Below are positions 227-43,233 of a DNA stretch of 64,000 nt, piece after piece. The notes under the pieces are model-generated. The model searched no databases and was not told the origin of the DNA. It saw only the letters and a list, made by a program, of their open reading frames with translations. How positions within the stretch are numbered: position 1 is the stretch's first letter; every line of letters starts with the position of its first letter. The stretch is from Antedon mediterranea (Eukaryota > Animalia > Echinodermata), in the NCBI RefSeq assembly GCF_964355755.1, contig NC_092671.1, positions 26,176,070-26,240,069 on the forward strand, read 5' to 3'. A program made the translations under genes and the position numbers.

Positions 227-282
227 CTAATATTCGAATTCACCATCCATTTCCAGTGCCTCAAGAAGGAGCTCATCGGAGC
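227..282 (-). CDS. Terminal coding exon (GSDELLLEALEMDGEFEY*) of the microexon gene
   Basis: Acceptor TATTTTATTTAATTTAAG, phase-1 entry, TAG at 229-227; AATAAA on the minus strand at 108-103. Confidence 0.7.
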
Positions 283-3200
283 CTTAAATTAAATAAAATA
301 TCTAGTTTGTACAATAATGATAGCAACAATAATTCATTTTAAAATGACCAAAACATAAATGGAACGATGGATTGAATTTTGTTGACCAACTTCTCCGTAA
401 CATTACGGTAGTTTATAATCTTGCCATAACTATCGACCAGCAGGAAATGCCATCGGAACTCCTAAGTTTATTTCTGAGGTTAAAGAAAATTAAACTAAGC
501 TCAAAAAGAATATAAGACAGTCTATATGCTAATTCTATAAAATTAAGAAAATGTAAAATAAGATAATATTAAACATTTATTATGTGTTTAAAGTAAAAAA
601 AAAACAGAACAAAATGTCAAAGATAATGGAAAATGTTATTTTGCTAGACGAGAGGCGATATCTCCATCAATGCATACATTGAAGTAGGTCAACCAAACTT
701 AATCACTCGGCACATTAGTGATATGAAATAGTTAATTATTTAATTTTGCCTATCGAAAGCGGAGTGATATTTTCATACACTTGCTAAATTAAAAAATATG
801 TCTGATAATACCTCCTGCTGCTGCAGTGGTGCTGGCCGCTGCTGTAAAATACAAGAAATATCAGAGTCCAATTATTACAATTAACATTATATGATTTACA
901 ATTCACAACATCTTTTTATGCTTTAAATAAAATTCATTTGCTTAATTACAAATCATGTTTCATAATATAATTACCTGCTGCAGCAGTGGAGCTGCCCGCT
1001 GCTGTAAAATAAAAAAGAATCATGGTCCAATTATAACATTATTTGATATACAATTCATAGTATATTTGTTATGCTTTTGATACATTTGATTTGTTTTATT
1101 ACAAATCATGTTTCCTAATAATTATAATTACGATACCTGCTGTAACAGTGTCGCTTTCATCTTGGAAATTTACTTCTGAAATAGATAAAATATAAATTTG
1201 TAACAACAAATGATATTTTTTTTATATTATTATTTAAAAACAAAACGGGAATCTTGTATATTTTTACCAACAAATTATTGGCCTAACTAAAGGATATCTA
1301 TGTCCTTTTTTTTCTTTTTAGATAAAAATGTTCAATATAAGTATACAACTTCATTATTCATTTTAAATTGTTTTTATTTTTCAAATTTAATTGAAAATTG
1401 AACCGTGCGAATCCAATACGTAATCGTGTCGTCATTTACCTTTGCCGTCTCCTAAAATTAGAAAATAAAAATAATATTAATTTAAATATACAAGTACAGC
1501 TACATTCCCTAGATATATTCCAGACAATATTCCAGAGCGCTATGAGTTAACAAAAGTATCATGTCTTCAACATTCAATAAGTAAGTTTATAACACATTAT
1601 AAGGCCTAAAAAGACTACATATGCGTGATTACAAAATAAGTCTGAAAAATTACCTGCTGCCGCAGTGGTGCTAACCGCTGCTATAAAATACAAGAAATAT
1701 CATAGTCCAATTATTACAATTAACATTATTTGATTTACAATTCATAACATCTTTTTATGCTTTAAATAAAATTCATTTGCTTAATTACAAATCATGTTTC
1801 CATTTGCTTAATTACAAATCATGTTTCATAATAATAATTACCTGCTGCAGCAGTGGAGCTGCCCGCTGCTGTAAAATAAAAAAGAATCATGGTCCAATTA
1901 TAACATTATTTGATATACAATTCATAGCATATTTTGTATGCTTTTGATACATTTGATTTGTTTTATTACAAATCATGTTTCCTAATAATTATAATTACGA
2001 TACCTGCTGTAACAGTGTCGCTTTCACCTTGGAAATTTACTTCTGAAATAGATAAAATATAAATTTGTAACAACAAATGATAGATATTGTTTTTATATTA
2101 CAATTTTAAAAAACAAAACCGGAATCTTGTGTATTTTTACTAGAAATTCATTGGCCTTACTAAAGCATCTATGTAGTTATTTTTTTCTGTTTAGAAAAAA
2201 AAGTTTAATATAAGTAATACAAAATATACTAATACAACTTCATTATTCATTTTAAATTGGTTCTTTTTATAATTTAATTGAAAGTTAAACCGTGCGAATC
2301 CAATACGTAATCGTGTCTTCATTTACCTTTGCCGTCTCCTAAAATTAGAAAATAAAAATAATATTAATTTAAATATACAAGTACAGCTACATTCCGTACA
2401 GATATTCCAGACAATATTCCAGAGCGCTACGAGGTAACAAATATAAGATATCTTTATCATTCAATAAGTACGTTCAGTAAGTTTATAACACATTATAAGG
2501 CCTAAAAAAACTACATAGGCGTGATTACAAAATAAGTCTGAAAAATTACCTGCTGCCGCAGTGGTGCTAACCGCTGCTATAAAATACAAGAAATATCATA
2601 GTCCAATTATTACAATTAACATTATATGATTTACAATTCATAACATCTTTTTATGCTTTAAATAAAATTAATTTGCTTAATTACAAATCATGTTTCATAA
2701 TATAATTACCTGCTGCAGCAGTGGAGCTGCCCGCTGCTGTAAAATAAAAAAGAATCATGGTCCAATTATAACATTATTTGATATACAATTCATAGTATAT
2801 TTTGTATGCTTTTGATACATTTGATTTGTTTTATTACAAATCATGTTTCCTAATAATTATAATTACGATACCTGCTGTAACAGTGTCGCTTTCATCTTGG
2901 AAATTTACTTCTGAAATAGATAAAATATAAATTTGTAACAACAAATGATAGATATTGTTTTTATATTACAATTTTAAAAAACAAAACCGGAATCTTGTGT
3001 ATTTTTACTAGAAATTCATTGGCCTTACTAAAGCATCTATGTAGTTATTTTTTTCTGTTTAGAAAAAAAAGTTTAATATAAGTAATACAAAATATACTAA
3101 TACAACTTCATTATTCATTTTAAATTGGTTCTTTTTATAATTTAATTGAAAGTTAAACCGTGCGAATCCAATACGTAATCGTGTCTTCATTTACCTTTGC

Positions 3201-6200
3201 CGTCTCCTAAAATTAGAAAATAAAAATAATATTAATTTAAATATACAAGTACAGCTACATTCCGTACAGATATTCCAGACAATATTCCAGAGCGCTACGA
3301 GGTAACAAATATAAGATATCTTTATCATTCAATAAGTACGTTCAGTAAGTTTATAACACATTATAAGGCCTAAAAAAACTAGATATGCGTGATTACAAAA
3401 TAAGTCTGAAAAATTACCGGCTGCCGCAGTGCTGCTGACCGCTGCTGTAAAATACAAGAAATATCAGAGTCCAATTATTACAATAACATTATTTGATTTA
3501 CAATTCATATCATCTTTTTATGCTTTAAATAAAATTCATTTGCTTAAAGATGTATTGTCCCTTTGTCAAATTCCAAAAACAAACAAAAAAAGATTTCGAA
3601 AAAAAGTGGGTCATTTTGAAGTATCATAATAGTTATTAATTTTCACCAAAAATTAGTCGGAAAAAAATCATTTAACTGAAATACAGACGTTTTTTTGGTT
3701 CAAAAAATAACTTTGACTTCCAGTCAAAGTTTTCTATCAAAACATATCTCATAATGCAACGCGCTTATTTGGCTACTCTGTATGCATAATCATAAAACTT
3801 CTTCGCGATCTGTGTAAGAACACCTTCTCATCCGTGACGAGTTGTAAATAATCCTAATTAGCATCATGCATAATGTATACTCATGGTTTGAAATCTTTGT
3901 TTATTTTCGCTCGGGACAATTATCCAGATGAAATGTAATCAAATTAATTTAGCTGTTAATTACGTAAATTGTTGTTTTAGGCTCGAATTTACGATTTAAG
4001 ATGAATAACTTTAATATTACTTTGATATTTTATTTAAATTTAGAATATTTTGACCTTCATTTTTTTGTGTTTCAATGGACAATACATCTTTAATTACAAA
4101 TCATGTTTCATAATAATAATTACCTGCTGCAGCAGTGGAGCTGCCCGCTGCTGTAAAATAAAAAAGAATCATGGTCCAATTATAACATTATTTGATATAC
4201 AATTCATAGTATATTTTGTATGCTTTTGATACATTTGATTTGTTTTATTACAAATCATGTTTCCTAATAATTATAATTACGATACCTGCTGTAACAGTGT
4301 CGCTTTCATCTTGGAAATTTACTTCTGAAATAGATAAAATATAAATTTGTAACAACAAATGATAGATATTGTTTTTAGTCGCGTGGACGCGACTCTGTAG
4401 TTCACTATGTCGGTCGGTCGGTCTGTCGGTCTTTCTGTCGGTCCGGTATCACTATGCGTTTTATCGCTTTTCTGTACTTTTTGAACTGTTTTGATGTCAA
4501 CATGTGGGCATTTACGTGAAATTGTGCACTTCTATTGTGAATGACGTTAGAGTTGCGCAACGTGATTTACGCGCGATTTAACGATTTTCTCGTATTTAAC
4601 ATAGGTCAAAAACCAAATAACATTTTAAATTGAAACTTTGCAAAAGTTTAATTTATATCAGGCGCTAACTTTCTGTTGAAAAAAAAAAGGTGTTTTACAC
4701 AAAGTTACGCGTGCACGCGCATTTAAAATTTTAAAATTTGCAAAATTAATTTTTAATCAACTTTCTACGCGTTTCTTGTCATCTTGAGCATGTCAAAAAT
4801 TCCCATACGCGCGCAAATGTTTACGCGCGCGGTGCGCACGTAGCATTAAATACATACTTTTTTCGCGTGATTTATGTTTTTGCAGCCTTTTCTAATAATT
4901 TTACCAACTTTTAAACAATTTCGACTTAAAATTACGTCATACGAGCACGTCGAATTGGATAATTTGCGCACGTTTTCGATGAAAAAATTAAAAAATTCGT
5001 CGAAATTATGCCTTTTTAGTCGCGTGGACGAGACTCTATAGTTCACTATGTCGATCGGTCTGTCTGTCGGTCTGTCGGTCTGTCTGTAGGTCCGGTATCA
5101 TTATGCATTGTAGCACGCGACTTAATGGCTGTTGGCCTTGTTATATTACAATTTTAAAAAACAAAATCGGAATCTTGTGTTTTTTTGCCAGCAATTCATT
5201 AGCCTTACTAAGGCAACTATGTAGTTATTTTTTTGTTTAGAAAAAAAAAGTTTAATATAAGTAATACAAAATAAACTAATACAACTTCATTATTCATTTT
5301 AAATTGGGTTTTTTTTTCAAATTTAATTGAAAGAACCGTGCGAATCCAATACGTAATCGTGTCGTCATTTACCTTTGCCGTCTCCTAAAATTAGAAAATA
5401 AAAATAATATTAATTTAAATATACAAGTACAGCTACATTCCGTACAGATATTCCAGACAATATTCCAGAGCGCTACGAGGTAACAAAAGTATCATGTCTT
5501 TAGCATTCAATAAGTAAGTTTATAACACATTATAAGGCCTAAAAAAACTACATATGCGTAATTACAAAATAGGTCTGAAAAATTACCTGCTGCCGCAGTG
5601 GTGCTGACCGCTGCTGTAAAATACAAGAAATATCATAGTCCAATTATTACAATTAACATTATTTAATTTACAATTCACAACATCTTTTTATGCTTTAAAT
5701 AAAATTCATTTGCTTAATTACAAATCATGTTTCATAATAATAATTACCTGCTGCAGCAGTGGAGCTGCCCGCTGCTGTAAAATAAAAAAGAATCATGGTC
5801 CAATTATAACATTATTTGATATACAATTCATAGTATATTTGTTATGCTTTTGATACATTTGATTTGTTTTATTACAAATCATGTTTCCTAATAATTATAA
5901 TTACGATACCTTCTGTAACAGTGTCGCTTTCATCTTGGAAATTTACTTCTGAAATAGATAAAATATAAATTTGTAACAACAAATGATAGATATTGTTTTT
6001 ATATTACAATTTTAAAAAACAAAACCGTAATCTTGTGTATTTTTACTAGCAATTCATTAGCCTTACTAAAGCATCTATGTAGTTATTTTTTTTCTGTTTA
6101 GAAAAGAAAAGTTTAATATAAGTAATACAAAATATACTAATACAACTTCATTATCCATTTTAAATTGGTTTTTTTTTTCAAATTTAATTGAAAGTTGAAT

Positions 6201-9200
6201 CGTGCGAATCCAATACGTAATTGTGTCGTCATTTACCTTTGCCGTCTCCTAAAATTAGAAAATAAAAATAATATTAATTTAAATATACAAGTACAGCTAC
6301 ATTCACTAGAGATATTCCAGACAATATTCCAGAGCGCTACGAGGTAACAAAAGTATCATGGCTTTAGCATTCAATAAGTAAGTTTATAACACATTATAAG
6401 GCCTAAAAAAACTACATATGCGTAATTACAAAATAGGTCTGAAAAATTACCTGCTGCCGCAGTGGTGCTGGCCGCTGCTGTAAAATACAAGAAATATCAT
6501 AGTCCAATTATTACAATTAACATTATATGATTTACAATTCACAACATCTTTTTATGCTTTAAATAAAATTCATTTGCTTAATTACAAATCATGTTTCATA
6601 ATATAATTACCTGCTGCAGCAGTGGAGCTGCCCGCTGCTGTAAAATAAAAAAGAATCATGGTCCAATTATAACATTATTTGATATACAATTCATAGTATA
6701 TTTGTTATGCTTTTGATACATTTGATTTGTTTTATTACAAATCATGTTTCCTAATAATTATAATTACGATACCTGCTGTAACAGTGTCGCTTTCATCTTG
6801 GAAATTTACTTCTGAAATAGATAAAATATAAATTTGTAACAACAAATGATAGATATTGTTTTTAGTCGCGTGGACGCGACTCTGTAGTTCACTATGTCGG
6901 TCGGTCGGTCTGTCGGTCTGTCTGTCGGTCCGGTATCACTATGCGTTTTATCGCTTTTCTGTACTTTTTGAACTGTTTTGATGTCAACATGTGGGCATTT
7001 ACGTGAAATTGTGCACTTCTATTGTGAATGACGTTAGAGTTGCGCAACGTGATTTACGCGCGATTTAACGATTTTCTCGTATTTAACATAGGTCAAAAAC
7101 CAAATAACATTTTAAATTGAAACTTTGCAAAAGTTTAATTTATATCAGGCGCTAACTTTCTGTTGAAAAAAAAAAGGTGTTACACAAAGTTACGCGTGCA
7201 CGCGCATTTAAAATTTTAAAATTTGCAAAATTAATTTTTAATCAACTTTCTACGCGTTTCTTGTCATCTTGAGCATGTCAAAAATTCCCATACGCGCGCA
7301 AATGTTTACGCGCGCGGTGCGCACGTAGCATTAAATACATACTTTTTTCGCGTGATTTATGTTTTTGCAGCCTTTTCTAATAATTTTACCAACTTTTAAA
7401 CAATTTCGACTTAAAATTACGTCATACGAGCACGTCGAATTGGATAATTTGCGCACGTTTTCGATGAAAAAGTTAAAAAATTCGTCGAAATTATGCCTTT
7501 TTAGTCGCGTGGACGCGACTCTATAGTTCACTATGTCGGTCGGTCTGTCTGTCGGTCTGTCGGTCTGTCTGTAGGTCCGGTATCATTATGCATTGTAGCA
7601 CGCGACTTAATGGCTGTTGGCCTTGTTATATTACAATTTTAAAAAACAAAATCGGAATCTTGTGTTTTTTTGCCAGCAATTCATTAGCCTTACTAAAGCA
7701 TCTATGTAGTTATTTTTTTGTTTAGAAAAAAAAAAGTTTAATATAAGTAATACAAAATAAACTAATACAACTTCATTATTCATTTTAAATTGTTTTTTTT
7801 TCAAATTTAATTGAAAGTTGAACCGTGCGAATCCAATACGTAATCGTGTCGTCATTTACCTTTGCCGTCTCCTAAAATTAGAAAATAAAAATAATATTAA
7901 TTTAAATATACAAGTACAGCTAAATTCCCTAGATATATTCCAGACAATATTCCAGAGCGCTATGAGGTAACAAAAGTATCATGCCTTCAACATTCAATAA
8001 GTAAGTTTATAACACATTATAAGGCCTACAAAAACTAGATATGCGTAATAACAAAATAAGTTTGAAAAATTACCTGCTGCCGCAGTGGTGCTAACCGCTG
8101 CTGTAAAATACAAGAAATATCATAGTCCAATTATTACAATTAACATTATTTGATTTACAATTCACAACATCTTTTTATGCTTTAAATAAAATTCATTTGC
8201 TTAATTACAAATCATGTTTCATAATAATAATTACCTGCTGCAGCAGTGGAGCTGCCCGCTGCTGTAAAATAAAAAAGAATCATGGTCCAATTATAACATT
8301 ATTTGATATACAATTCATAGCATATTTTGTATGCTTTTGATACATATGATTTGTTTTATTACAAATCATGTTTCCTAATAATTATAATTACGATACCTGC
8401 TGTAACAGTGTCGCTTTCATCTTGGAAATTTACTTCTGAAATAGATAAAATATAAATTTGTAACAACAAATGATAGATATTGTTTTTATATTACAATTTT
8501 AAAAAACAAAACCGGAATCTTGTGTATTTTTAATAGAAATTCATTGGCCTTACTAAAGCATCTATGTAGTTATTTTTTTCTATTTAGAAAAAAAAGTTTA
8601 ATATAAGTAATACAAAATATACTAATACAACTTCATTATTCATTTTAAATTGGTTCTTTTTATAATTTAATTGAAAGTTAAACCGTGCGAATCCAATACG
8701 TAATCGTGTCTTCATTTACCTTTGCCGTCTCCTAAAATTAGAAAATAAAAATAATATTAATTTAAATATACAAGTACAGCTACATTCCGTACAGATATTC
8801 CAGACAATATTCCAGAGCGCTACGAGGTAACAAATATAAGATATCTTTATCATTCAATAAGTACGTTCAGTAAGTTTATAACACATTATAAGGCCTAAAA
8901 AACCTAGATATGCGTGATTACAAAATAAGTCTGAAAAATTACCTGCTGCCGCAGTGGTGCTGACCGCTGCTGTAAAATACAAGAAATATCAGAGTCCAAT
9001 TATTACAATAACATTATTTGATTTACAATTCATCATCTTTTTATGCTTTAAATAAAATTCATTTGCTTAAAGATGTATTGTCCCTTTGTCAAATTCCAAA
9101 AACAAACAAAAAAAGATTTCGAAAAAAAGTGGGTCATTTTGAAGTATCATAATAGTTATTAATTTTCACCAAAAATTAGTCGGAAAAAAATCATTTAACT

Positions 9201-12200
9201 GAAATACAGACGTTTTTTTTTTGTTCTAAAAATAACTTTGACTTCCAGTCAAAGTTTTCTATCAAAACATATCTCATAATGCAACGCGCTTATTTGGCTA
9301 CTCTGTATGCATAATCATAAAACTTCTTCGCGATCTGTGTAAGAACACCTTCTCATCCGTGACGAGTTGTAAATAATCCTAATTAGCATCATGCATAATG
9401 TATACTCATGGTTTGAAATCTTTGTTTACTTTCGCTCGGGACAATTATCCAGATGAAATGTAATCAAATTAATTTAGCTGTTAATTACGTAAATTGTTGT
9501 TTTAGGCTCGAATTTACGACTTAAGATGAATAACTTTAATATTACTTTGATATTTTATTTAAATTTAGAATATTTTGACCTTCATTTTTTTGTGTTTCAA
9601 TGGACAATACATCTTTAATTACAAATCATGTTTCATAATAATAATTACCTGCTGCAGCAGTGGAGCTGCCCGCTGCTGTAAAATAAAAAAGAATCATGGT
9701 CCAATTATAACATTATTTGATATACAATTCATAGTATATTTGTTATGCTTTTGATACATTTGATTTGTTTTATTACAAATCAGGTTTCCTAATAATTATA
9801 ATTACGATACCTGCTGTAACAGTGTCGCTTTCATCTTGGAAATTTACTTCTGAAATAGATAAAATATAAATTTGTAACAACAAATGATAGATATTGTTTT
9901 TATATTACAATTTTAATAGATAGATATTTATTTATATTACAATTTAACAAAAATCTCTTAATCATCGGAACTTATTTCCATTGTTCAGTTTTTATATTAC
10001 AGTTTTAAGAAACACATATGTAAAGTATCGATATTGACATAACCCCCACTTATTTAAGCGGTAAAGCAGAACGAGCATTGTGAAAACTGTGATGCAGAAC
10101 TTTTTCATAATGTTGTTCGTAAGATAGGAATGGGATAAATTTTAAACTTGGAGCTACTACTAATAAAACCTTCCTACTACATATTGCAGTCATTTTGTAT
10201 GGATGCGTTCATTAGAAAATTGTGTATGACAAACAATCTCTCTTACAATATAAATGATATAATCGTACATACCGAGTTTGTACCTTGCCTCTGTATTATA
10301 CTCAGCAGCTAAAAAATAAATGAACAACCGATTCTCAGTTCTGTGTATATATTTGTATAATTATAATATTCTCCGTCATCTTAGGCAAATTCCGTAATAC
10401 CGCATCAAATGTGTATCATATATGGTGCCCGTATTATGAAAGGTTAAATTAATTAGGTTAGGGTATATGATACATGTGTTACATATGAAACATATGTGAT
10501 CCTGTATCACGGAAGTTGCCTATACTTGTATTGATCCAATTAGTTAGTTACTGTTGCTTAGGCCTATACCAAAATAGGTGTTTATTTCTGTATTTTATAG
10601 GCATGGAATAATTTGCATATCACCTGAAATATTCTCATGTAATGAAATATTTTTCCAAAGGAAAATATTCTGAGTGAACAAACTGATTTTTTTAGGAAAT
10701 GAATTGATAGACATTATCTATTAATACATCTTCTAGTCTAGATCATACAGTATATCGATTTTCTTAAAGCAATATTCCAGAGAACAAAAACAAAAATAAT
10801 GATATTCTCAGCCCGCGATTATGTTCGTACATAAATTGGGGACTCATTGTGTGAAAGCATAGATTAATGAATAGATGGATACGTGTCAACGGTGTGTTGA
10901 ACCGTGAAATGTACAAAAAGTCACATTTGTGCAAACAACCACATTTATGCAAACATGGCACCCTAATTATGTACAAATCTGTAAAAATGTATAATCCACT
11001 AATGAGCAAACATCACGCCGTTAAATGTAAAAAACGATCAGTATTGACGTTAAATGTGCAAATGAAATTCTATAAAGGGTTTTTCAATCAAAATCGTTTA
11101 TTAACAAGGCAGTCGCGTGCTCAAGTTAGTGTTTACCGACCGACCGACCAACCGACCGACATAGTAAGCTGTAGAAAAATGATAACCTAATTCTAAACAG
11201 TCACGGGTTTTTCTAACAATGTTGTTAAGATATAGCCACTTACATATTTAATTATACCACAGGCTGAAATAATCTGTTTTGGAAAAAAAAAATACAATCA
11301 TGTTCGGGAATGCAAGACTGACACGTGATCGCTGCTTGCTGGAGATGATAATCCATACCGTTGGAATTTTTTTTTAAATCAGAATTAACATCAAAACGTA
11401 CTCAAGTAGAAATCGTATGTCTGATTGGTCTATTGACATGTTTGCGTCGAGGATTAATTAACAACAAGATATTGCTGAACAATTATTTTAAATTTCATCC
11501 AAATCGGACTACAAAAGCTCATTTTCTTACGACCGTAATTTTAAGTAGTTAAAAAATAATATGCAATTTTCATATTTGAATTATCTTATTGTTCCGAAAC
11601 CTCCGAAAATTAAATTATAGAATATTAAATCATGCATTCGATCATGAAAATGATGTTCGAAACAAATTATATTCCGGCACAGAGAATGAAATGACAAAAT
11701 GTTATTCCAAAAGACTTGAATGGTATCCCGTGAGAACAGAATAGTGTTCCGAGAGAACGAAAATCTATTCCGAAAGAATGGAATGGTATTCCGTGAGAAC
11801 AGAATAGTGTTAAGAGAGAATGGTATTCCGAAATGTTATTCTGTTAGAACAGAATCGAGTTACTAGAGAACGAACAGATAATCCGAACGAACAGAATAGT
11901 TTTCCGAGAGAACGAAGTGATATTTCGAAAGAATTGAATGGTATTCTGTGAGAACAGAAAAAATGTTACTAAAGAAAGGAGTGATATTACGAAAGAACGG
12001 AATGGAATTGGAAGTCCATGAGAACAGAATAGAGTTACGAGAGAGCAAAGTATTATTCCGAACGAACGGAAAGGTATTCCGTGAGAACTGAAATTGTTAT
12101 ATGAGAGAACGAAATGATATTCCCAGGAAAAAGAACGGAATATTATTCCTATTGCATGAGAACGAATGTGTTACGAGAGTGCGAAGTATTATTCCGAAAG

Positions 12201-13431
12201 AACGGAAAGGTATTCCGTGAGAACTGAATATTGTTATGCGAGAGAACGAAATGATATTCCCAGGGAAAAGAACGGAATATTATTCCTATTCCATGAGAAC
12301 GGATAGTGTTACGAGAGAGCAAAGTATTATTCCGAAAGAACGGAAAGGTATTCCGTGAAAACTGAATATTGTTTTACGAGAGAACGAAATGATATTCCCG
12401 AGAAAAAGAACGTTATGTTATTCCAAAAGACTGGAATGGTATTCCGTGAGAACAGAATAGTGTTAAGAGAGAACGGAATGATATTCCGAAATGTTATTCT
12501 GTTAGAACAGAATCGAGTTACTAGAGAACGAAGAGATAATCCGAACGAACAGAATAGTTTTCCGAGAGAACGAAGTGATATTTCGAAAGAATTGAATGGT
12601 ATTCTGTGAGAACAGAAACAATGTTACTAAAGAAAGGAGTGATATTACGAAAGAACGGAATGGAATTGGTAGTCCATGAGAACAGAATAGTGTTACAAGA
12701 GAGCAAAGTATTATTCCGAACGAACGGAAAGGTATTCCGTAAGAACTGAATATTGTTATACGAGAGAACGAAATGATATTTCCAAAAAAAAAAAGAATGG
12801 AATATTATTCCTATTCCATGAGAACGGATAGTGTTACGAGAGTGCGAAGTGATATTCCGAAAGAACGGAATAGTATTCCGTGAAAAATGAATATTGTTTT
12901 ACAAGAGAACGAAATGATATTCCCGAGAAAAGGAACGGAATGGTATTCCGTGAGAACAGAATAATGTTACGAGAGGACGAATTGAAATTCCAACAGAACC
13001 GAATGGCATTCGTGAGAACAGAATAGTGCACCGAGAGAACGAAAAGAAACTCCGAAAGAACGGAAGGGTTTTCTGTGAGAACAGAATAATTATTATAGTG
13101 TTCCGAGAGAACCAACCAAATTAATTCCAAAAGAACTGAATGATATTTCTAGGGAACGGAAGATATTTGGATCAATTAATATTGAAAACATAATGTTTCT
13201 ATTGACAAATACAATGATACGGAATAATGATAGATGAAATCTATATTTTAGATGAAAATGTCTTCATAGAGATATAAAAGAAACGTTTGAGCTTCAATAA
13301 AAAGATGACGTGTATTCTTAAATATAGCTTTAGCTTAAATATTGAACTTATTACTTGCCTTTCATAAACGGTTTGGCGAATACCATTGACATAAATGTCG
13401 CCGTAATCAGGATTACCTTGAAACAAATCAT
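227..13431 (-). CDS. Microexon gene encoding a predicted 331-aa secreted Ala/Ser/Thr-rich acidic tandem-repeat protein (34 coding exons)
   Basis: Exons in transcription order: 13431-13359, 10308-10273, 9849-9811, 9675-9649, 8969-8943, 8731-8720, 8435-8397, 8261-8235, 8100-8074, 7871-7860, 6811-6773, 6637-6611, 6477-6451, 6248-6237, 5948-5910, 5774-5748, 5613-5587, 5384-5373, 4324-4286, 4150-4124, 3444-3418, 3206-3195, 2910-2872, 2736-2710, 2576-2550, 2338-2327, 2042-2004, 1868-1842, 1680-1654, 1451-1440, 1175-1137, 1001-975, 841-812, 282-227. Every internal exon has a T-rich tract+AG acceptor and a G|GTA donor, a length divisible by 3, and phase 1. Total 996 nt, no internal stop: MICFKVILITATFMSMVFAKPFMK-AAEYNTEARYKL-[EVNFQDESDTVTA AAGSSTAAA AAVSTTAAA GDGK]x7 (minor variants)-EVNFQDESDTVTA AAGSSTAAA AAASTTAAAG-GSDELLLEALEMDGEFEY*. 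Confidence 0.85.
3548..4089. mobile_element. Kolobok-type MITE (542 bp), intronic
   Basis: 13-bp TIR AGATGTATTGTCC...GGACAATACATCT; TTAA duplicated on both sides; sibling units show the empty site CATTTGCTTAATTACAAATC. TTAA TSD with RR..YY termini is the Kolobok signature. Confidence 0.85.
4375..5140 (+). mobile_element. Helentron-associated non-autonomous element (HINE/DINE-1-like), long composite form, intronic
   Basis: Inserted in a T run without clear TSD; 5' AGTCGCGTGGACGCGACT hairpin, (GTCG/GTCT)n microsatellite, 3' sub-terminal inverted repeat CACGCGACT and small terminal stem GGCTGTTGGCC; empty site in sibling units. Confidence 0.8.
6862..7625 (+). mobile_element. HINE-like element, second copy at the equivalent intronic site
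   Basis: Near-identical to 4375-5140 with the same flanks. Confidence 0.8.
9071..9614. mobile_element. Kolobok-type MITE, second copy at the equivalent intronic site
   Basis: Near-identical to 3548-4089, with the same TIRs and TTAA TSD. Confidence 0.85.
10273..10308 (-). CDS. 36-nt phase-1 exon (AAEYNTEARYKL) of the microexon gene
   Basis: TTTATTTTTTAG|CTGCTG...AACTCG|GTATGT; links the signal exon in frame to the first 39-nt exon. Confidence 0.75.
11104..11178 (-). mobile_element. Degenerate short HINE-like fragment
   Basis: AGTCGCGTGC and (CCGA)n tract, reverse complement of the family seen at 18969-19076. Confidence 0.55.
11690..13160. repeat. Degenerate ~20-22-bp minisatellite (GAGAACAGAATAGTGTTCC / AAGAACGGAATGGTATTCC) with higher-order duplication, inside the GC-AG intron
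   Basis: Recurrent motif; blocks ~11780-12200 and ~12435-12860 repeat at about 658-bp offset (the paired spurious ORFs 11863 and 12521). Confidence 0.9.
13359..13431 (-). CDS. First coding exon of the microexon gene: signal peptide MICFKVILITATFMSMVFA|KPFMK
   Basis: Acceptor TTTTTTTTTTATAG (AG at 13438-13437), then AAACC ATG, a hydrophobic core and a VFA cleavage motif; ends AAAG|GCAAGT (GC donor, phase 1). Confidence 0.8.
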
Positions 13432-14032
13432 GGTTTCTATAAAAAAAAAATATATATATATATATGTAACACACCTTGGTATATTCTTGTCATTTTATTG
13501 GAGGGTTGTGGGTCATATGATATTATATAAATGCACTATTTTCCTTTTTTTAAATTTTTACTAGTTCTGTACTTTTCTGTTATTTTTTCTTTTATTTTTA
13601 TCAAACACATTTCCAACGGTATTAATTTTCTTTTATGAATATTGGACAATACAAGTTTTTGAATTTTTAATAGAGTTTATTCAATGTATTATGGTTCAAT
13701 TTAACTATTTATCTTTTTTTTTCTTAATATAAGTTAAATATAACATCTGCTTATCTTTCCTATTCAATGTTTAATTTAATTGTTGATATATAATATATGT
13801 TGGTGGACAATACATTACACTAATTGATGTTATATTTGCTTATAGAAACATTTGATTTAATACTCTTGATTTTAGATGAAAATGTGTATGTTTTTAGCTA
13901 TAATTGTACTGTATGATAAATACCATCTTTTACCGTAAGTATATCGTGAAAATGCTTACTGAAATTAGAATATGCAAAAAAAAAAAAAGAAGAAAAATTT
14001 TCAAAAAGTATAATTAAAATTAGGTTACTTAC

Positions 14033-14102: not shown

Positions 14103-14631
14103 AAGATAAATCATCAAATCGGATCACGATCTATTGATCACAATTCTGGGACAAATTATTTTGACCTGGGGAAACAAATTTGTTTTCACTATAAAATCAC
14201 TTATTTCTCACTAGAAATATTTAATAATAGTTATACTAGGCTATATTTATAGAGAAATAATGATTATTAACATACATCAATTTTGACAAATATACATTTT
14301 TGTAAAATGTTTCAAAGTATATATAAGACATAAACCATACAGCAAAAAAATGGTATATTCGTATTGTTGATCTATCGATTATGTTAGCGTTACGTATATC
14401 AACTTATCAATATCATGGATCAAACGTGTATTTGATACTTTAAACTCGATCGATCCCTATTACGCAATTTCCTAAATATTCCATAATTAAATATTGTAAA
14501 GAAGACAATGCACCTGTCTATTTACACGCCTACAACAACGGAGAGACAAATACCGAAAGTTATAGTCAGGAGACGAGAAACTGCAGATTCAAAGAATTTA
14601 TTTTTTGTATACAACGTATCGTACGAGTATC

Positions 14632-15663
14632 GGGTGCATCAATATGCGTTAACAGTATGTCCAGGGACGGGTGCAGCAATACGCCTTAACGGTATGTCCA
14701 GGGACGGGTGCAGCAATACGCCTTAACAGTATGTCCAGGGACGGGTGCAGCAATACGCCTTAACAGTATGTCCAGGGACGGGTGTAGTATACGCTTCAAC
14801 AGAATGTCCACGGACGGATGCAGCAATACGCTTTAACATTATATCCAGGGACGGGTTCAGAAATACGCTTTAACAGTATGTCCAGCAGGGATGGGTGCAG
14901 CAATACGCTTTAACATTATGTCCAGGGACGGGTGCAGCAATACGCTTTAACAGTATGTCCAGAGACGGGTGCAGCAATACGCTTCAACAGTATGTCCAGG
15001 GGATGGGTGCAGCAATACGCCTTAACAGTATGTCCAGGGACGGGTGTAGTATACGCTTCAACAATATGTCCAGGGATGGATGCAGCAATACGCTTTAACA
15101 GTATGTCAAGGGATGGATGCAGCAATACGCTTTAACAGTATGTCCAGGGATGGGTGCAGCAACACGCTTTAACAGTATGTCCAGCAGGGACGGGTGTAGT
15201 ATACGCTTCAACAGTATTTCCAGGGATGGATGCAGCAATACGCTTTAACATTATGTCCAGGGACGGGTGCAGCAATACGCTTTAACAGTATGTCCAGCAG
15301 GGACGGATGTAGTATACGCTTCAACAATATGTCCAGGGACGGGTGCAGCAATACGCTTTAACATTATGTCCAGGGACGGGTGCAGCAATACGCTTTAACA
15401 TTATGTCCAGGGACGGGTGCAGCAATACGCTTTAACAGTATGTTTAGGGACGGGTGCAGCAATACGCTTTAACAGTATGTCCAGCAGGGACGGGTGTAGT
15501 ATACGCTTGAACGGGTGCAGCAATACGCTTCAACAGTATGTTCAGGAGGAACGGGTGCAGCAATACGTGTCAACAGTATGTCCAGCAGGGATGGGTGCAG
15601 CAATACGCTTCAACAGTATGTCCAGGGTCGGGTGCAGCCATACGCTTTAACAGTATGTCCAGG
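14632..15663. repeat. 37-bp GC-rich minisatellite (TAACAGTATGTCCAGGGACGGGTGCAGCAATACGCYT), roughly 27 copies
   Basis: Direct tandem periodicity with 36- and 40-bp variants. Confidence 0.95.
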
Positions 15664-15799
15664 AACCAATTTCCTATTACATCAAAACAATATGTATTAT
15701 AACTAGATGATAACTACTAAGTGAGATAATAAATGAATAGAAAATTGCAAAATGTAAAACAGCCAGACAAATTTGCATTTTATATGATGTTTGTGATAT

Positions 15800-16018
15800 G
15801 ATATACTGAAATTTAATTAATTAATTTGAAACGATAAAGATGAGGAAATCTGTGAGAATGAGAAAATGTCACCCCAACCGAGACTCGAACTCGGACCGCC
15901 TGCTTGATATGCAGATGTCCTAACCATTAGACCACTGGGGCTTTCATGGTATTGTTCAAACTCGATTGGATAGCGCCTCTCTAACATTCTCGGCGTGGTA
16001 CGGCGGAACATCACTAGT
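15800..16018 (-). mobile_element. Dispersed repeat with an internal tRNA-like module (tRNA-like part 15941-15870)
   Basis: Same family as 40973-41295, 42700-42960 and 56032-56310; A box TGGTCTAATGG, B box GAGTTCGAGTC. Confidence 0.75.
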
Positions 16019-16058: not shown

Positions 16059-16824
16059 TTAGTCGCGTGGACGCGACTCTATAGTTCACTATGTCGGTCG
16101 GTCGGTCGGTCTGTCGGTCTGTCGGTCTGTCGGTCTGTCTGTCGGTCCGGTATCACTATGCGTTTTATCGCTTTTCTGTACTTTTTGATGTCAACATGTG
16201 GGCATTTACGTGAAATTGTGCACCTCCTATTGTGAATGACGTTAGAGTTGCGCAACGTGATTTACGCGCGATTTAACGATTTTCTCGTATTTAACAAAAA
16301 CCAAATAACATTTTAAATTGAAACTTTGCAAAAGTTTAATTTATATCAGGCGCTAACTTTCTGTTGAAAAAAAAATTTGTTTTACACAAAGTTACGCGCG
16401 CACGTGCATTTAAAATTTTAAAATGCGCAAAATTAATTTTTAATCAACTTTCTACGCGTTTCTTGTCATTTTGAGCATGTCAAAACTTCCCATATGCGCG
16501 CAAATTTTTACGCGCGCGGTGCGCACGTAGCGTTAAATACATACTTTTTTCGCGTGATTTATGTTTTTGCAGCCTTTTCTAATAATTTTACTAACTTTTA
16601 AACAATTTCGACTTAAAATTACGTCATACGAGCACGTCGAATTGGATAATTGGCGCACGTTTTTGATGAAAAAGTTCAAAAATTCGTCAAAATTATGCCT
16701 TTTTATAGACTCTATAGTTCACTATGTCGGTCGGTCTGTCTGTCGGTCTGTCGGTCTGTCGGTCTGTCTGTCGGTCCGGTATCACTATGCATTGTAGCAC
16801 GCGACTTAATGGCTGTTAGCCTTG
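16059..16824 (+). mobile_element. HINE-like element, third long copy
   Basis: Homologous to 4375-5140; the internal second hairpin is deleted near 16705. Confidence 0.8.
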
Positions 16825-16984: not shown

Positions 16985-17560
16985 TTACCGATCTGGGAGT
17001 ATGTTCCTAATGTTAAGTCCAAAAGGTTTTGTGGTTTTAAGTTGTAATTCCAAGTGGTTTTCTTTGTCTTTGCGAGTTTTGTCGCTCCATTTGACATCGT
17101 GGTCTATTGCAATAACTCTGAAATTTGCAATCGAGTGACCAGCTGAATTAAAATGTTCGGCTACAGGTTGATCAAGCTTTAATGTTTTGATAGATGATCT
17201 GTGTTGTGTCATTTTCATACGGAGAGTATTTTTTTGTTTCCCCGACGTACTGTTTGCCACATATATTACAGTATATGAGATAAATGACGTTTTTGGTTAG
17301 ACAATTAATTGATTATCTTATCTGAAAAATGCGGCCAGTTTGGTTACTCTTAAATGTTTCAGTAGAATCAACCAATGAAAAGGATTTGCTGCAAAGGTGA
17401 CTACTCAAATTGTGGCTGTCATGAGAGTTAATTTCACTCTTAAGTTTGGATCTGACTAATCTATCACGAAGGTTGGGAGGTCTACGAAATCCAATATTGT
17501 GTGGTTCCGGAAAAACAGTCCTGAGACGTTCTGTGGACTGTATATATATGCACATGTTTC
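16985..17560 (-). mobile_element. Penelope-like retroelement 3' fragment (GIY-YIG endonuclease pseudogene)
   Basis: Frameshifted FRRPPNLRDRLVRSKL ... NVIYLIYCNICGKQYVG ... PVAEHFNSAGHS ... LKTTKPFGLN, typical of the PLE linker and GIY-YIG domain. Confidence 0.88.
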
Positions 17561-18077: not shown

Positions 18078-18152
18078 TTTATTCGCGTTCAAACGCGACT
18101 CTGTAGCTCACTATGTCGATTGGTTGGTCGGTCGGTCTATTGGTCGGTCGGT
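18078..18152 (+). mobile_element. Degenerate HINE 5' fragment
   Basis: TTTTTATTCGCGTTCAAACGCGACTCTGTAGCTCACTATGTCG followed by (GGTC)n. Confidence 0.55.
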
Positions 18153-18968
18153 AGGGGCAATAAGGTGCAGTCGATTTTCGAAATAAATGATGTATGTAAA
18201 GTGTAAATGTATAAAAGTATTGGTATCCATATTTCAAAAGCAATTGATATCCATCGCCATCTATATTATACGAAAGACTTTGTACATCTGTTTGTTAATT
18301 TTGAGATACTTTTTCAATTCCATGTAAGTGTTATATTTATTATCAACTTATGTATGTGCAGGTGAGTTTCCATAGTTTATGTAGTATAAGTGTATGTCTA
18401 TTTTATGTTACTGGATTTTAAGATACATTTGTAAATCGAGGATTAAACGCATTAGTTCCTGCCATAGGCACCTCAGCGATACGTTTTATTATTTCACATT
18501 ATATACTACTGACAGTGAGTTCTTAAGTCTTGTTCACACTGGACTTGAAAAATAGAAAACATTTTACAACCAATGTAATTTAAGCTTTGTTCGCAGTAGA
18601 TTTGAAAAATGGTAAATTCAACCACGGTAGCTTTACCCAATGTCATCATAAGAAGCTTTACCCAATGTCATCATCAGAAGCTTTGACAAAAATTTTTAAA
18701 AATATGTTATTAATCCATAGCCTACTTGTATTTATTCGCATCAGGTATACGTCATAAATAGTTTATTTGATGCGCCCTCTAGACGAAGCATTTCAGCATA
18801 CAAAAATGGTTTGAATTTTGTTTGCTACTTTCCATGTTCTATGTGGCATTCACACATTGCATAAGCTCTAGAAAACTAGACAACTTTTATGTAACATGAA
18901 TCCTCTATTCTTCTATAGCTTCTCAATTTTGAATCTGAACATTTCGGACATTTTGTATGCCTACGTTT

Positions 18969-20003: not shown

Positions 20004-20471
20004 GATAATGACAATAACAATGACAATGACAATGATTCTTTATTTCTTTAACGACCCTTTTCAGTGTATGAAAGAACATTCTTTCAATCTTGAACAGAAA
20101 CAAACTAAACACTTAGCTAAGTTTGATAGTTTTTTTTTTGATCTGGTATTAAGTAATTGGTACATTTGGGTTCTATTTGGGCGGGTGATATAACACTTTT
20201 GAATGTATATTTGGCGCATGGGAGCAAGTAAGGGGCAAATAAATAAATAGTGGTATTCGTCTCCAGTATCGTTTTGGTTACATAAAGTACATTTGGTTTC
20301 GTGTTCATTAGGCCTACTGTATCTTTTAGAGATTGAAAGTTGATGATTCCCACATCTGAACCTGCAGAGATCAATCCTTTCATTATATTTTAGTAAAATT
20401 AATGACTGTTCGAATACTAAAACATCCTTTTGATTTTGATACAGTGGCAGACATCGACATGGTGCATCCAA
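20004..20471 (-). mobile_element. 5'-truncated non-LTR retrotransposon (ORF2 C-terminus with CCHC-type motif)
   Basis: LCRFRCGNHQL...CTLCNQNDTGDEYHYLFICP; followed on the minus strand by AATAAA and a (CATTGT)n tail. Confidence 0.85.
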
Positions 20472-20584
20472 AATTACTAGAAATAAAATACAACATTATA
20501 TATTGGTTACTATTAGTTAACATTAAGTAAAATTATAATATTATATAAAACAAACAATTTAAACTTATCTTTAGTTAGTTGGTA

Positions 20585-23279: not shown

Positions 23280-24405
23280 CACAAACTGCATAAAAAATGC
23301 TGAACGAAGTCGAAGAGTAGCCATCGGCTCACAAACAATTAAAATACCAAAAGCCGAACAGCAAATTCCAGAACAGTTGAAAACATTTTTATCTGCTAAT
23401 CAAGTTCTTCTTTCAAATATGAAGCATGTGTGAAGCAGATCACCTCAAGGGAATAAATGTATTCATAACATCATCATTATTATGCCATTCTATTTCAGAA
23501 TCAAATGGAAAAGTTTTAATCAAGAAGAGGCAGACACCAGAATGTTTCTGTATGCGAAGTATGCTGCACACCATGGTGGTAAAGATATTGTTACAATCAG
23601 CCCTGACACTGATGATGTTTTTATTATTGGATTGGCATTTTGCAAAAGTCTGCATGGCTCTCACCTATATTTCAATACTGGAAAAGATGCTAATCTCCGA
23701 ACAATTCATCTGCAGGCTATTCAGGAACATATTGGAAATGATGTTTCAAATGCATTAATTAGACTACATTGCTTCACAGGATGCGATTCAGTCAAAGCTT
23801 TTTTTGGGAACGGTAAAGTGAAGGCAATGAAACTCGTAATGGAAAACTCTAATTTATGCATTCTTTTCATTGGGCAATTCTACCAGCAAACTTTCAGATG
23901 AATTACTTTGTGATCTAGAAACATTTGTGTGTAGGCTGTACAGTATTGTCACAAGAACCAATCTGTCAATGAAGTAAGGTATGCAATGTTCTCAATGAGC
24001 TGAAAATATGATGCCACCCAATAAAGATACTGTATGTAAACATATTCAGCATGCCAATTCTCAAGCTTCAATTCACAAAGCTAGTTTTATTCAACAACAA
24101 AATGCTCCATCTCCTGTTGGAAATGGGTGGAAGATGGCCGATAATAAACTCGTAATTGACTGGATGGAGAAGCAACCTGCTCTACACAGCATTCTCGAAT
24201 TGTCATCCTGGTCATGTAAAAAGTCAAAATGCAATGAAGGGGTTGCAAATGAAAAATGCTGTGTATCCTTAGGATTCTCTTGTACAGAATTATGCTCGTG
24301 CAAAAACTGTAACAATCTTCTTCATACATCAGATGTTTGAAATTGATGGAGATGATAGCGATGATGAGGAAGAGTTTGAGCAGGAAGAACTTTTTAGTGT
24401 AGTTT
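23280..24405 (+). pseudogene. Frameshifted XPG/FEN1-like nuclease domain, Cys-rich C-terminus and acidic tail of the Academ-like transposase
   Basis: EEADTRMFLY, SPDTDDVF, LHCFTGCDSV..FFGNGKVKA, PSPVGNGW, SCKKSKC...CC...SCTELCSCKNCNN; several stops and frameshifts. Confidence 0.85.
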
Positions 24406-28419: not shown

Positions 28420-29965
28420 TATATAACACCTAAATAAATTCCTGTCATTTGATGGGACGATTGTGGGTCACATGGCGTGCAATTGTACGCACTATTTTTT
28501 TCAATTCAATTCATCGACATTTTTATTCCATAATCAAAATAAAAACGTATACAAATACAATACAAATAATAAGATAATGGAATGGGATACAAAATAAGCA
28601 CAAGTGCTTTAAGCATGTAACCCTAACAAAAAGATCAAACAATTAGTACAAACAAAAAGAACAAACCAAAATAACATAATGTGATTTACTTAACTTAAAT
28701 ATTTCTATTGTTATAATATTGCTTTAATCTCTGTTTAAACAAACTTAAAGTGGGGGATTGTTTTATATAGTCTGTTAAATTGTTCCAAATATGTGTTCCT
28801 TGGTAGGAAATACATTGCTGTCCGACTTTGGTGCGTTTTAGTTGTGGACAGTAGTTTGACCTGTTTCTAGTTGAGTAATTATGGAATGAGGCAGGTGTAC
28901 TAAATAAGTTATTAAATGATTCAGGTAATAGATTATGTTTATATTGATACATAAATATAGCAGTGTGTTTTGTATAAAGGTCAAAAATATTAAACGATCG
29001 TTTAATAGTACTTTTTGAAACATTTTTCTGTACGAAAAAAAAAACGTTTCGCGGATGAAAAAAAATCTAGTACACAAATTATCCTATGATATGGCTCTGT
29101 ACTGTGAAATACAACAGCGCCACCTGTCGTCTGGCCTCTGTTTCGTTTTTCTTTTAAAAATTTGTGTACGAAAAAAAAACGTTTCGCGGATGAAAACAAA
29201 TCTAGTACACAAATTACCCTATGATATGGCTCTGCTGTACCGTGAAATACAACAGCGCCACCTGTCGTCTGGTCTCAGTTTCATTTGTAAACATCACCGC
29301 GAGATATGCAACAGCAGCAGATATTTGTGTATGATTTGGACATTATGTACTAATTTCATTCAAAAAGGCATTTAAATTAGCTTTAGATCGTTTTTAGGAT
29401 TTTGATTAATTAATGGGGACATCCCTACAAGACGTGGAATTGTTGGAAAAACCATAATTAGCTTAGATAAGTTCCAATTGTCAGTCGAAATTTTGCTTTT
29501 CAGCCAAGCTAGTACAAGGCTACTAGGTCTAGCCTAGGCCATGCTAGTATTAGGCTAGGCCTAGCCTAGGCGTTTTAGCCTTGCTAGGCCTAGGATTGTT
29601 TGGTCGTTTGTTGTCATAATTAACACAAAAGTAGGTGTGTTTACGAAATCCATATAAATATAACATTTAATATAAAATTATTAAAAACCAAATGTTACTG
29701 TTTTTAATCAATGTGAATGAAATGTAGTAGGCTTTAGCTAGGCTACCTTTTATTTTATTCAAATGACAAGAATTTATTTAGATGTTATATAAAACAAATA
29801 ATGAATGTTTTGTATTCGAGTAATGGTACAAATAATGGCACTTGGTGAATGATGAAAGGTTATATTTCAACTCGGCTCATCGCCTCGTTGAAATATAACC
29901 TTTGATCATTCACCTCGTGCCATTATTTGTACCATTACACTCATAAACATTCATTATTTGTATAC
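28420..29965 (+). mobile_element. Longer copy of the palindrome-ended element, interrupted by a LINE and carrying a ~136-bp internal duplication
   Basis: Same head; palindrome 29794-29961; duplication within 29020-29280. Confidence 0.7.
28497..28987 (-). mobile_element. 5'-truncated CR1/L2-group LINE
   Basis: HNYSTRN...ISYQGTHIWNNLTDYIKQSPTLSLFKQRLK ORF2 C-terminus, AATAAA and (TTGAA)n tail; TATT repeated at both junctions relative to the empty host site CACTATT(A/C)AACGATCG. Confidence 0.85.
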
Positions 29966-37116: not shown

Positions 37117-38495
37117 AACATAAATACTACTGATAATTTTGACAAAAACCGAAATAAAAGAAGACCAATCGAACCCACATCACTGCTTCCGTTTACTAGC
37201 AATTTAAGGTGCATAGACCAGCCAGTACATAACTCACAGGTGTTCTCAGTGATGTGGGTATCTAGCTAAACAAATTAAATTGAAACCCAACACAAAAAGC
37301 TAGGCCAAAAACAAGGCAAAGCAACCATCACTGAGAAAGCCTAACAAAAGGCAGTGAGAAATGTAAACAAAGGACTTAAGAACAAAATATACTGAGCCTA
37401 GCACATTGATCTAAAAAGATCAAATTTTAAGGCAAAACAAAAAACAAGTGTTAAAATCAGAATGCTCGAAAAGATGTTAGATTAACAAATCCAGAAGAAG
37501 GCAATAAAAAAAAAAGTGAACAATAAAAGGAAATTAAACACTATCCAAGGCAAGCTTATTCAGCGCCAAGCATAGCCCACTTCATGGCTTTCAAGTAAAA
37601 CAACAGTATATACCCATATAAATTCTTACTACACTGATATATAAACTATCTTCATTTGAGTTTGAGGTTTAGAGGTTTGTATGTTTTTGACTGATTAACT
37701 AATTCCATAATGTCACCATACTTCTTTAAGTACAGTTTTAGAATTCATTATAATACAAATATAATTTACTTGTTTGATGCATTGTGAAAAAAAACCAATG
37801 ACGAATTATATACACAGTGCCTTGTCAAAAAACTGATCTCACTGATTGTATTGACATATTTTGAATCGATTTTCAGTAGTTTAAATCCATAAAATCAATG
37901 AATGAATTTAAAAAAAAAGTTACTCTATGGTTGCAGAAATTTATATTTTTTTCTTTTTCACTTCTTACAATTCTGTAATTACCAAAAAGGAAAACAAAAT
38001 CTCAAAAGCATTGTATAATAAGAGGTAAAGACATCTAATCTAGGAATAGTTTAAGAAGAAATATGTATTTATTGTGATTTATTATTCGTTATTACTAGGA
38101 GGATTATGGTCTGTTACCACATAGAAACTATTCTGTTTATTTTATCTTAGTTTATCTATACATATATATATATATAGGCCTAAAAAAACAAAAATCCGTA
38201 ACCGTAAAAGAAATTCACCGGAAGTGAATTCTCTCTCACACAACCGGTTTCTAGTTAAAATTAACCGCTTTTATAAGCTATATTATCAATTTTGTTGGGG
38301 TTTTTGCGGAAGTGAATACTTTTATTAAAACTACCAAAATAGTTTATTCAAAGTTTGATTTTTTTCTCTTCTATATTTTTAATCTTTTGAGGTAATAAAT
38401 TATTTTAAACAATTTCAAAGATTATCTCTAGATAGAATCATATAATTCTTGACGTATAATTATATCCGTAAACTTCTTAAATTGAATTTCTATTT

Positions 38496-38619
38496 TTAGT
38501 CGCGTTGACGCGACTCTATAGTTCACTATGTCGGTCGGTCGGTCTGTCGGTCTGTCGGTCTGTCTGTCGGTCCGGTATCACTATGCGTTTTAGCACGCGA
38601 CTTATGGCTGTTGGCCTTG
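38496..38619 (+). mobile_element. Minimal 124-bp HINE-like element
   Basis: Complete 5' hairpin, (GTCK)n tract, 3' CACGCGACT and terminal stem, between T runs. Confidence 0.8.
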
Positions 38620-40972: not shown

Positions 40973-41295
40973 GATGAGGGCGTATCAATTTGATCTCTGG
41001 TGCGCGTGCGTACAACTGAGGACTAGTTGTGTTCCAACCGTACCACGCCGAGAATGTTAAAGGGTCGTTATCCGATCGAGTTAAAGAACAATACCATGAA
41101 AGCCCCAGAGTGGTCTAATGGTTAGGGCAACTGCATATCAAGCAGACGGTCCGAGTTCGAGTCTCGGTTGGGGCGACTTTTTCTCATTCTCCCAGATTTC
41201 CTCATCTTTATCGTTTCAAAAATTAATTAAATAATTTTCAGTGTATCACCGGGCGGTTTGGAATTTATTTCTATGCCTGTTGTATTTATAGATAT
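40973..41295 (+). mobile_element. Dispersed repeat with an internal tRNA-like module (41102-41175)
   Basis: Shares a ~130-bp leader and a ~100-bp trailer with 56032-56310. Confidence 0.75.
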
Positions 41296-42772: not shown

Positions 42773-42844
42773 GCCCCAGTGGTCTAATGGTTAGGACATC
42801 TGCATATCAAGCAGGAGGTCCGAGTTCGAGTCTCGGTTGGGGCG
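42773..42844 (+). pseudogene. tRNA-like sequence (ATC anticodon, Asp-like) within the repeat copy 42700-42960
   Basis: Folds by eye into a 72-nt cloverleaf: GCCCCAG/TTGGGGC, TCTGC-ATATCAA-GCAGG, CCGAG-TTCGAGT-CTCGG; followed by TTTTT. Confidence 0.65.
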
Positions 42845-42993: not shown

Positions 42994-43161
42994 CAATGAA
43001 GTTGCGTAGCACTGTGTGTGTGTGTGTATTTACAGTATGATTTATATAATGATTTATATATAATTTACACAAACAGTGCTCATATTCGGAACATGATCTC
43101 ATAATCGCGTCGAGCATAGCTCATTGGCGAAAGTTCCGTATTTTTTAGTTGTATGAAAAAA

Positions 43162-43233
43162 TGTCTCTGGCGGGATTCGAACCTGCAACCTCTCGCTTAC
43201 AGGGCGAGTATCATACCACTAGACCACAGAGCC
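43162..43233 (-). pseudogene. tRNA-derived sequence (Pro-like body, atypical anticodon loop CCTGTAA)
   Basis: GGCTCTGTGGTCTAGTGGTATGATACTCGCCCTGTAAGCGAGAGGTTGCAGGTTCGAATCCCGCCAGAGACA followed by T6; intact A and B boxes. Confidence 0.65.

Follow-up and report, generated by a model that had tools for sequence, protein, structure and literature searches.

The stretch of DNA analysed here, called the window, comprises 64,000 nucleotides (nt) of the Antedon mediterranea genome (NC_092671.1, positions 26,176,070 to 26,240,069), and near its beginning it carries on the minus strand an orphan gene for a repeat protein, predicted to be secreted, that grew by the copying of a block of four microexons. 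Coding starts in a predicted signal-peptide exon (13359–13436), which has an acceptor 5 nt before the ATG at 13431, 73 coding nt (13431–13359), a GC donor and phase 1. It continues through a predicted single-copy 36-nt exon, also of phase 1 (10308–10273), and an array of 31 microexons running from 9849 to 812, and ends with the 56-nt coding part of the terminal exon (282–227), which encodes an acidic-hydrophobic tail closed by TAG. Joined, these exons make 996 nt and 331 amino acids (aa). The 31 microexons measure 39 nt (eight), 27 nt (15), 30 nt (one) and 12 nt (seven), all divisible by 3, and every one is flanked by AG and GT and lies in phase 1. They are arranged in seven complete units of four exons (39, 27, 27 and 12 nt) and a partial eighth: unit 1 at 8720–9849 (exons 9849–9811, 9675–9649, 8969–8943 and 8731–8720), unit 2 at 7860–8435 (8435–8397, 8261–8235, 8100–8074, 7871–7860), unit 3 at 6237–6811 (6811–6773, 6637–6611, 6477–6451, 6248–6237), unit 4 at 5373–5948 (5948–5910, 5774–5748, 5613–5587, 5384–5373), unit 5 at 3195–4324 (4324–4286, 4150–4124, 3444–3418, 3206–3195), unit 6 at 2327–2910 (2910–2872, 2736–2710, 2576–2550, 2338–2327), unit 7 at 1440–2042 (2042–2004, 1868–1842, 1680–1654, 1451–1440) and unit 8 at 812–1175 (1175–1137 of 39 nt, 1001–975 of 27 nt, 841–812 of 30 nt). 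The 3′ untranslated region, at 103–226, has a candidate AATAAA at 108–103.

A search of the minus strand for the flank patterns returned 30 islands (eight of 39, 15 of 27 and seven of 12 nt); the remaining microexon, the 30-nt one at 841–812, has the donor GTATTA instead of GTAATT. The 996-nt frame is free of internal stops, while both other frames contain them, and because every exon ends in G no stop arises at any possible junction among the 34 exons, whichever exon is joined to whichever other. The GC content is 55% in exons and 28% in introns, and the introns are mostly 130–290 nt long. A generic scan for an acceptor, an island and a donor, which does not detect the 39-nt exon class, found four islands in the final 900 nt of this array, where shuffled sequences gave a mean of 0.026 (n = 1000) and none of the 1000 shuffles exceeded one island; outside the gene it found four islands in 101 kb of strand. 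A preliminary description of this DNA, made from the sequence, had proposed 31 microexons joined to a signal-peptide exon and a terminal exon, and its boundaries, its 996 nt and 331 aa, the stop-free frame, the multiples of 3 and phase 1 were all reproduced. That the internal microexons number 32 once the 36-nt exon is counted, and that the signal exon requires a GC donor, had not been mentioned there.

Five public sequencing runs from two studies contain part of the window, none of them recorded as RNA, and four of them (X1–X4) were compared over positions 1–1500, that is, 1500 of the ~13,400 bases of the gene; the statements on runs that follow refer to contigs over this interval. X1 comes from a sample and a study distinct from those of X2–X5. 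It contains the joints 281/811 (depth 744), 841/975 (822) and 1001/1137 (2626), which link the exons of unit 8 with one another and with the terminal exon. All three show CT..AC on the plus strand, corresponding to GT-AG introns removed on the minus strand, and for this reason X1 was treated as RNA. Three X1 contigs have a loose end at 1177 whose sequence runs through the 12-nt exon into the 27-nt exon, and the 27|12|39 junction type, present at unit 7, is represented in X1. Altogether five of the seven junction types were found, namely the four joints inside the unit and the one that leads into the terminal exon; from which of the eight units the reads of a repeated junction stem cannot be told. 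An X1 contig covers 120–284, with cover of the untranslated region extending to 120 (contigs cannot reveal an RNA 3′ end), and in the unique 3′ part X1 differs from the window at four positions. X2, X3 and X4 cover the introns over the compared interval, and none of the X1 joints was found in them. The gene is transcribed and spliced. The preliminary description had staked its model on the joining of the 12-nt exon to its neighbour, which the loose end at 1177 displays, and the GT-AG joints that were found keep the frame.

An X1 contig of depth 72 crosses the whole last intron (window 255–840) at ~6% of terminal-exon depth, and cover of the repeated introns was patchy. It may represent a retained last intron or unspliced RNA; with the intron retained, the protein would end after seven intron-encoded codons. 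In X2–X4, three runs of one sample, the repeat-to-unique depth ratio, a rough measure, was 6.6, 7.7 and 11.5, about what eight units would give; an assembly artefact is therefore an improbable origin of the array. As a single sample yielded all three values, the ratios were dropped as a sign of copy-number polymorphism, and X1 depth was likewise dropped as a count of units, contig depth being unfit for it.

To describe the 5′ end we scanned both strands of the window for an acceptor, an ATG, a hydrophobic run and a donor, and obtained two matches, at 13431 and 32593, compared with one match in 10 shuffles; the GC donor entered this filter after the 13431 exon had already been seen. The predicted protein has a hydrophobic N-terminus and a cleavage-like site. 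At the level of sequence this fits the longer 5′ exon with a signal peptide seen in the micro-exon genes (MEGs), and to that extent the signal peptide of the preliminary description is supported. The acceptor 5 nt before the ATG implies an upstream non-coding exon, and, as the full 78-nt exon (13436–13359) is symmetric and open throughout, a coding exon upstream of 13436 may also exist. Within a 3.5-kb gap, no island other than the 36-nt exon was found, and a symmetric open island arises there in 36 of 1000 shuffles. A GA-rich satellite of 21/133 bp (11718–13090) occupies much of the first coding intron, and a 37-bp minisatellite of ~28 copies (14631–15664) lies upstream of the gene, at a distance of 1.2 kb from the signal exon.

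The array bears traces of repeated copying. Two introns of the unit, one behind the 39-nt exon and one behind the first 27-nt exon, stem from an old duplication and are still 75–79% alike, as are the two 27-nt exons. The seven complete units differ by 0.9–6.6%, with units 1, 5 and 6 grouping together, and units 2 and 4 together. A ~1.85-kb block at 8063–9902 is recopied at 2539–4377 (1819/1837 positions alike, 99.0%) and another, at 6578–8437, is recopied at 4090–5950 (1828/1856, 98.5%). Transposons were copied with them: in unit 1, the intron that separates the two 27-nt exons holds an inverted-repeat element of 548 nt, inserted at TTAA (9071–9618), which recurs as a 546-nt copy, 99.3% alike, at the same intron position of unit 5 (3548–4093), and in unit 2 the intron that follows the 12-nt exon holds a 764-nt element with GTCG repeats (6865–7628), which recurs as a 766-nt copy, 99.5% alike, at the same position of unit 4 (4378–5143). 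Outside the gene, the GTCG-repeat element is present again, whole or in part, at 16060–16824 (a third copy, 89.7% alike), 38493–38619 and 18093–18153. The four transposon copies therefore amount to two insertions, each copied once along with its block. The preliminary description was right that all four are intronic; as two duplicated elements, however, they are uninformative on selection, and we ruled out their position as a sign of it, since with ~88% of the unit being intron, chance alone would be expected to place both events there. An exact 27-bp tandem duplication is found within an intron of unit 7 (1774–1827).

These recopied blocks support expansion of the array at the DNA level, as the preliminary description had proposed for its cassettes. 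In the order we envisage, a ~160-bp piece of exon plus intron would have been duplicated first, an ~870-bp block of four exons would then have expanded to eight, and the ~1.85-kb blocks with their transposons would have been recopied last, probably by unequal crossing-over, which is suggested because the recopied blocks are not adjacent. Phase-1 symmetry would have kept the frame at each of these steps, and so the symmetry can be explained without exon skipping. As the 31 microexons descend from three or four ancestors, it represents a handful of events and not 31.

The predicted mature chain has 312 residues, ~29.5 kDa and a net charge of about -37. It consists of 30% Ala, 24% Ser+Thr and 15% Asp+Glu, with one Pro and no Cys, and neither an N-glycan site nor a dibasic site was found in it. 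Its repeat is 35 residues long, Ala/Thr/Ser-rich and acidic, and its tail has 18 residues. Protein searches with the frames of the signal exon and of the 39-nt exon returned no relative and no match to a schistosome MEG family, a weak negative because these queries are partly intron. Taking the locus as a whole, we consider it probable that the gene encodes an orphan secreted, acidic Ala/Thr/Ser-rich repeat protein, its microexons spliced in order, that is likely an O-glycosylated protein of mucus or matrix with a length likely set by the number of blocks per allele. The extended polyanionic chain would bind water and cations, and the short unique tail may serve sorting or assembly.

Several observations weigh against this picture. 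The proposed role, that of a mucus or matrix protein that is secreted and O-glycosylated, is drawn from composition alone, and the single proline is unlike the proline-, threonine- and serine-rich (PTS) mucins. In a charge-hydropathy plot the chain falls on the folded side (0.489 versus a boundary of 0.456), and Ala-rich helices may therefore form. Both 5′ joints, and hence the link of the signal peptide to the repeat, are predicted from the genomic sequence. Constraint on exons relative to introns between units is not significant (7/105 versus 79/723 variable columns, P = 0.23); indel runs number 0 in exons and 14 in introns (P about 0.15), and the changes between unit exons comprise four replacement and three silent sites. 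Finally, the repeated junctions in X1 are only ~2–2.3 times as deep as the unique end (1119), whereas the assembly predicts 5–6 times: a 60-nt junction that occurs five times in the model has a depth of 2140, and the 39|27 junction occurs six times. This shallowness could come from 3′ bias, from a shorter allele or from whole-unit skipping, among which contig depth cannot discriminate.

The same chain might instead be a mineral-matrix protein, an acidic calcium-binding chain that shapes skeleton or shell and is built, like the vertebrate SCPP/SIBLING genes, from small same-phase exons. The 15% Asp+Glu and nine Ser-Asp pairs fit such a role, and SCPP genes too have a signal exon and symmetric exons expanded by internal duplication (PMC3632108). 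The chain has, however, just one S-x-E/D site and is dominated by Ala, and SCPP modules are of phase 0, which leaves this role rather improbable. Gly-Lys ends each of the seven blocks in an exon of its own, as would be expected of a polyprotein precursor that is cut at these sites to release seven near-identical amidated peptides; yet the mature chain contains no dibasic site, and the peptides released would be ~33 residues long and of low complexity, so that we regard a precursor as very unlikely. Least credible to us is a different 5′ end, with the hydrophobic exon being an internal membrane anchor or part of another gene and the RNA beginning upstream, for example in the signal exon at 32593. 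Exon 13436–13359 could be internal, being symmetric, open and of phase 1, and the exon at 32593–32383, on the same strand, likewise ends in phase 1; the latter has, however, a plausible last exon of its own at 31340, and the sequence directly after ATG 13431 is a typical signal sequence. A further candidate, an antifreeze protein, was ruled out: fish antifreeze proteins carry Ala-Ala-Thr triplets or Thr every 11 residues, and in this chain there is no AAT and the only Thr spacings are 1, 2, 7, 8 and 9.

A different kind of alternative concerns what the microexons are for. As a MEG-like diversifier, the gene would produce from one allele transcripts that skip exons or blocks, or that are trans-spliced, yielding a ladder of secreted isoforms. 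The layout allows it: being symmetric in phase 1 and stop-free at every join, any subset of exons stays in frame, as the preliminary description had stated, and 32 of the 34 coding exons, or 87% of the coding sequence, fall under the structural MEG rule of at least seven exons, at least half of them under 70 nt and divisible by 3, in runs of at least four (PMC7653826). In addition, the 39-, 36- and 12-nt exons are each symmetric, none of which block duplication alone needs (~1 in 9 by chance, by our estimate), and the X1 repeated junctions are shallower than eight units predict. The RNA speaks, weakly, for ordered splicing. All three X1 joints listed, and the sole exon-derived loose end among those listed, connect neighbouring exons, and none of the three joints nor of the five loose ends listed is a skip, although variant contigs at ~1% of the main depth were retained. 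Contigs lose rare forms, and whole-unit skipping creates no new junction, so that frequent single-exon skipping is only weakly disfavoured in the X1 sample. Moreover, the 31 microexons encode nine distinct peptides, four of which make up 26, and skipping would therefore alter length more than sequence. The trinucleotide TGC, when upstream, is an enhancer of neural microexons; it is absent from the 25 nt before each of the 30 exons inspected, which counts against a diversifier and by which we ruled out a neural-microexon reading. We thus regard such a diversifier as unlikely. Variation by exon skipping, which the preliminary description had advanced, gains no backing from this weak test, and of its independent MEG-like system the layout is supported and the variants are not: no skip joint is listed and the peptides are few. 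It is also rather unlikely, in our view, that variation evolved independently outside flatworms at two levels, with four-exon blocks in differing number among alleles, and with RNA further varied by whole-block skipping or trans-splicing, events that would escape short reads. If this were true, each individual would make its own ladder of secreted glycoproteins, and a class of genes would lie hidden inside masked satellites.

The preferred reading, an ordered-splicing repeat protein lengthened by block copying, can be set beside systems known from other animals. An exon-per-repeat layout is found in the mucins FIM-B.1 and FIM-C.1 of Xenopus, and tropoelastin is an extracellular low-complexity protein made from small symmetric exons by internal duplication; to our knowledge the introns of tropoelastin and of SCPP/SIBLING genes are not recent near-identical copies. 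The FIM mucins are secreted and polymorphic, both between alleles and through alternative splicing, and their repeats lie between Cys-rich modules (PMC7177656); the Antedon protein has no such modules. Low-complexity proteins commonly arise from small symmetric exons multiplied by internal duplication, and SCPP/SIBLING proteins resemble ours as extracellular products of this process, but their modules are of phase 0 and carry S-x-E sites (PMC3632108), whereas the Antedon microexons are of phase 1.

The closest precedent appears to be the SmPoMuc family of Schistosoma mansoni, which by layout and description is nearer than the MEGs. There, the genomic repeat is ~1 kb long and consists of a 27-bp exon with its introns; the copies are >93% alike and number up to 20 per gene, and the products are acidic and predicted to be O-glycosylated; the number of repeats is altered by unequal crossing-over, and the genes are hard to assemble (PMC2576457). 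This layout yields polymorphic secreted mucins, for which trans-splicing has been proposed, and the combination of a signal peptide, tiny exons and a genomic repeat is already known from it (PMC2576457). Both systems thus hold repeat exon and introns in a near-identical genomic tandem (here units differ by 0.9–6.6%). SmPoMuc has, however, one exon per repeat where the Antedon locus has four (39/27/27/12), a C-terminal region of 234 residues as against a tail of 18, polypurine spacers that were not seen at the Antedon locus, and a multigene family with transcripts holding more repeats than the DNA (PMC2576457). With one Pro and its 18-residue tail, the Antedon protein lacks the S/T/P repeat and long C-terminal region that mark SmPoMuc.

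MEGs, for their part, produce pools of variants by splicing, evolve fast and are apparently restricted to flatworms (PMC4350168), and their products are small and often O-glycosylated (PMC4671649). The Antedon gene shares with them a signal peptide, here a predicted one, in the 5′ exon, mostly symmetric microexons, longer flanking exons and a composition that in MEGs is often Thr/Ser-rich with O-glycosylation (PMC4350168, PMC4671649, PMC7653826, bioRxiv 10.1101/2023.06.21.545858). MEG products, however, average ~10 kDa and vary by skipping, whereas the Antedon protein is ~30 kDa and comes from near-identical tandem copies, with no skip among the joints listed. The gene is built like a MEG, and we do not class it as one because the defining splice-variant behaviour was not observed. 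The bicycle genes of aphids are secreted orphans with many small exons of the same phase that escape similarity search, and the megacycle genes grew by repeating multi-exon units (PMC9168663); secreted genes of many microexons have therefore arisen outside flatworms. Bicycle genes form a large divergent family with phase-2 internal exons and CYC motifs, while the Antedon gene is of phase 1 and has no Cys in the mature chain. In the open-licence literature, which leaves most subscription papers outside its coverage, neither this gene nor a repeated block of four microexons was found described.

What the locus offers is a protein-coding gene, backed by RNA, that has the look of a satellite and lacks any long open reading frame, and similar genes may be missing from annotations. 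Three ages of duplication are legible in it, and it indicates that a gene of all-symmetric microexons can arise by copying alone, with no selection for skipping, a route to MEG-like layouts that can be put to the test. Should block number differ between alleles or be altered by splicing, the locus would be a compact model for polymorphic mucins, in a lineage from which a search of the open-licence literature turned up no case.

Elsewhere in the window, a second small secreted gene is likely on the minus strand (32593–32383 and 31340–31274, 92 aa), with a signal peptide, a six-Cys peptide, four Arg, a phase-1 intron and a short acidic-hydrophobic last exon. A word search returned no relative of it, the search among representatives gave one weak match (E 8.9e-4), and the Atlas gave leads, under 0.9, to LRRNT clusters. 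A Pfam scan of 28 open frames in the window gave nothing at the curated cut-off and revealed no marker gene; the former holds also for open frames resembling decayed transposons at 16988–17296, 20064–20495, 23434–24337 and 28698–29066, which we take to be GIY-YIG-like, non-LTR (long terminal repeat) tails and a Cys-rich DNA-transposon remnant. An Rfam scan of the window gave four tRNA-like matches, none of them inside the microexon gene (15870–15941, 41103–41175, 42773–42844 and 43161–43234), three resembling tRNA-Asp(ATC) and one tRNA-Thr. The three tRNA-Asp(ATC)-like heads share their flanks and likely belong to a tRNA-derived short interspersed nuclear element (SINE), of which a further, decayed copy lies near 56120–56290. 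In a manner suggestive of echinoderm-type DNA, the observed/expected CpG ratio of the window is 1.04, and AGGCCT occurs 42 times against 4.6 expected.

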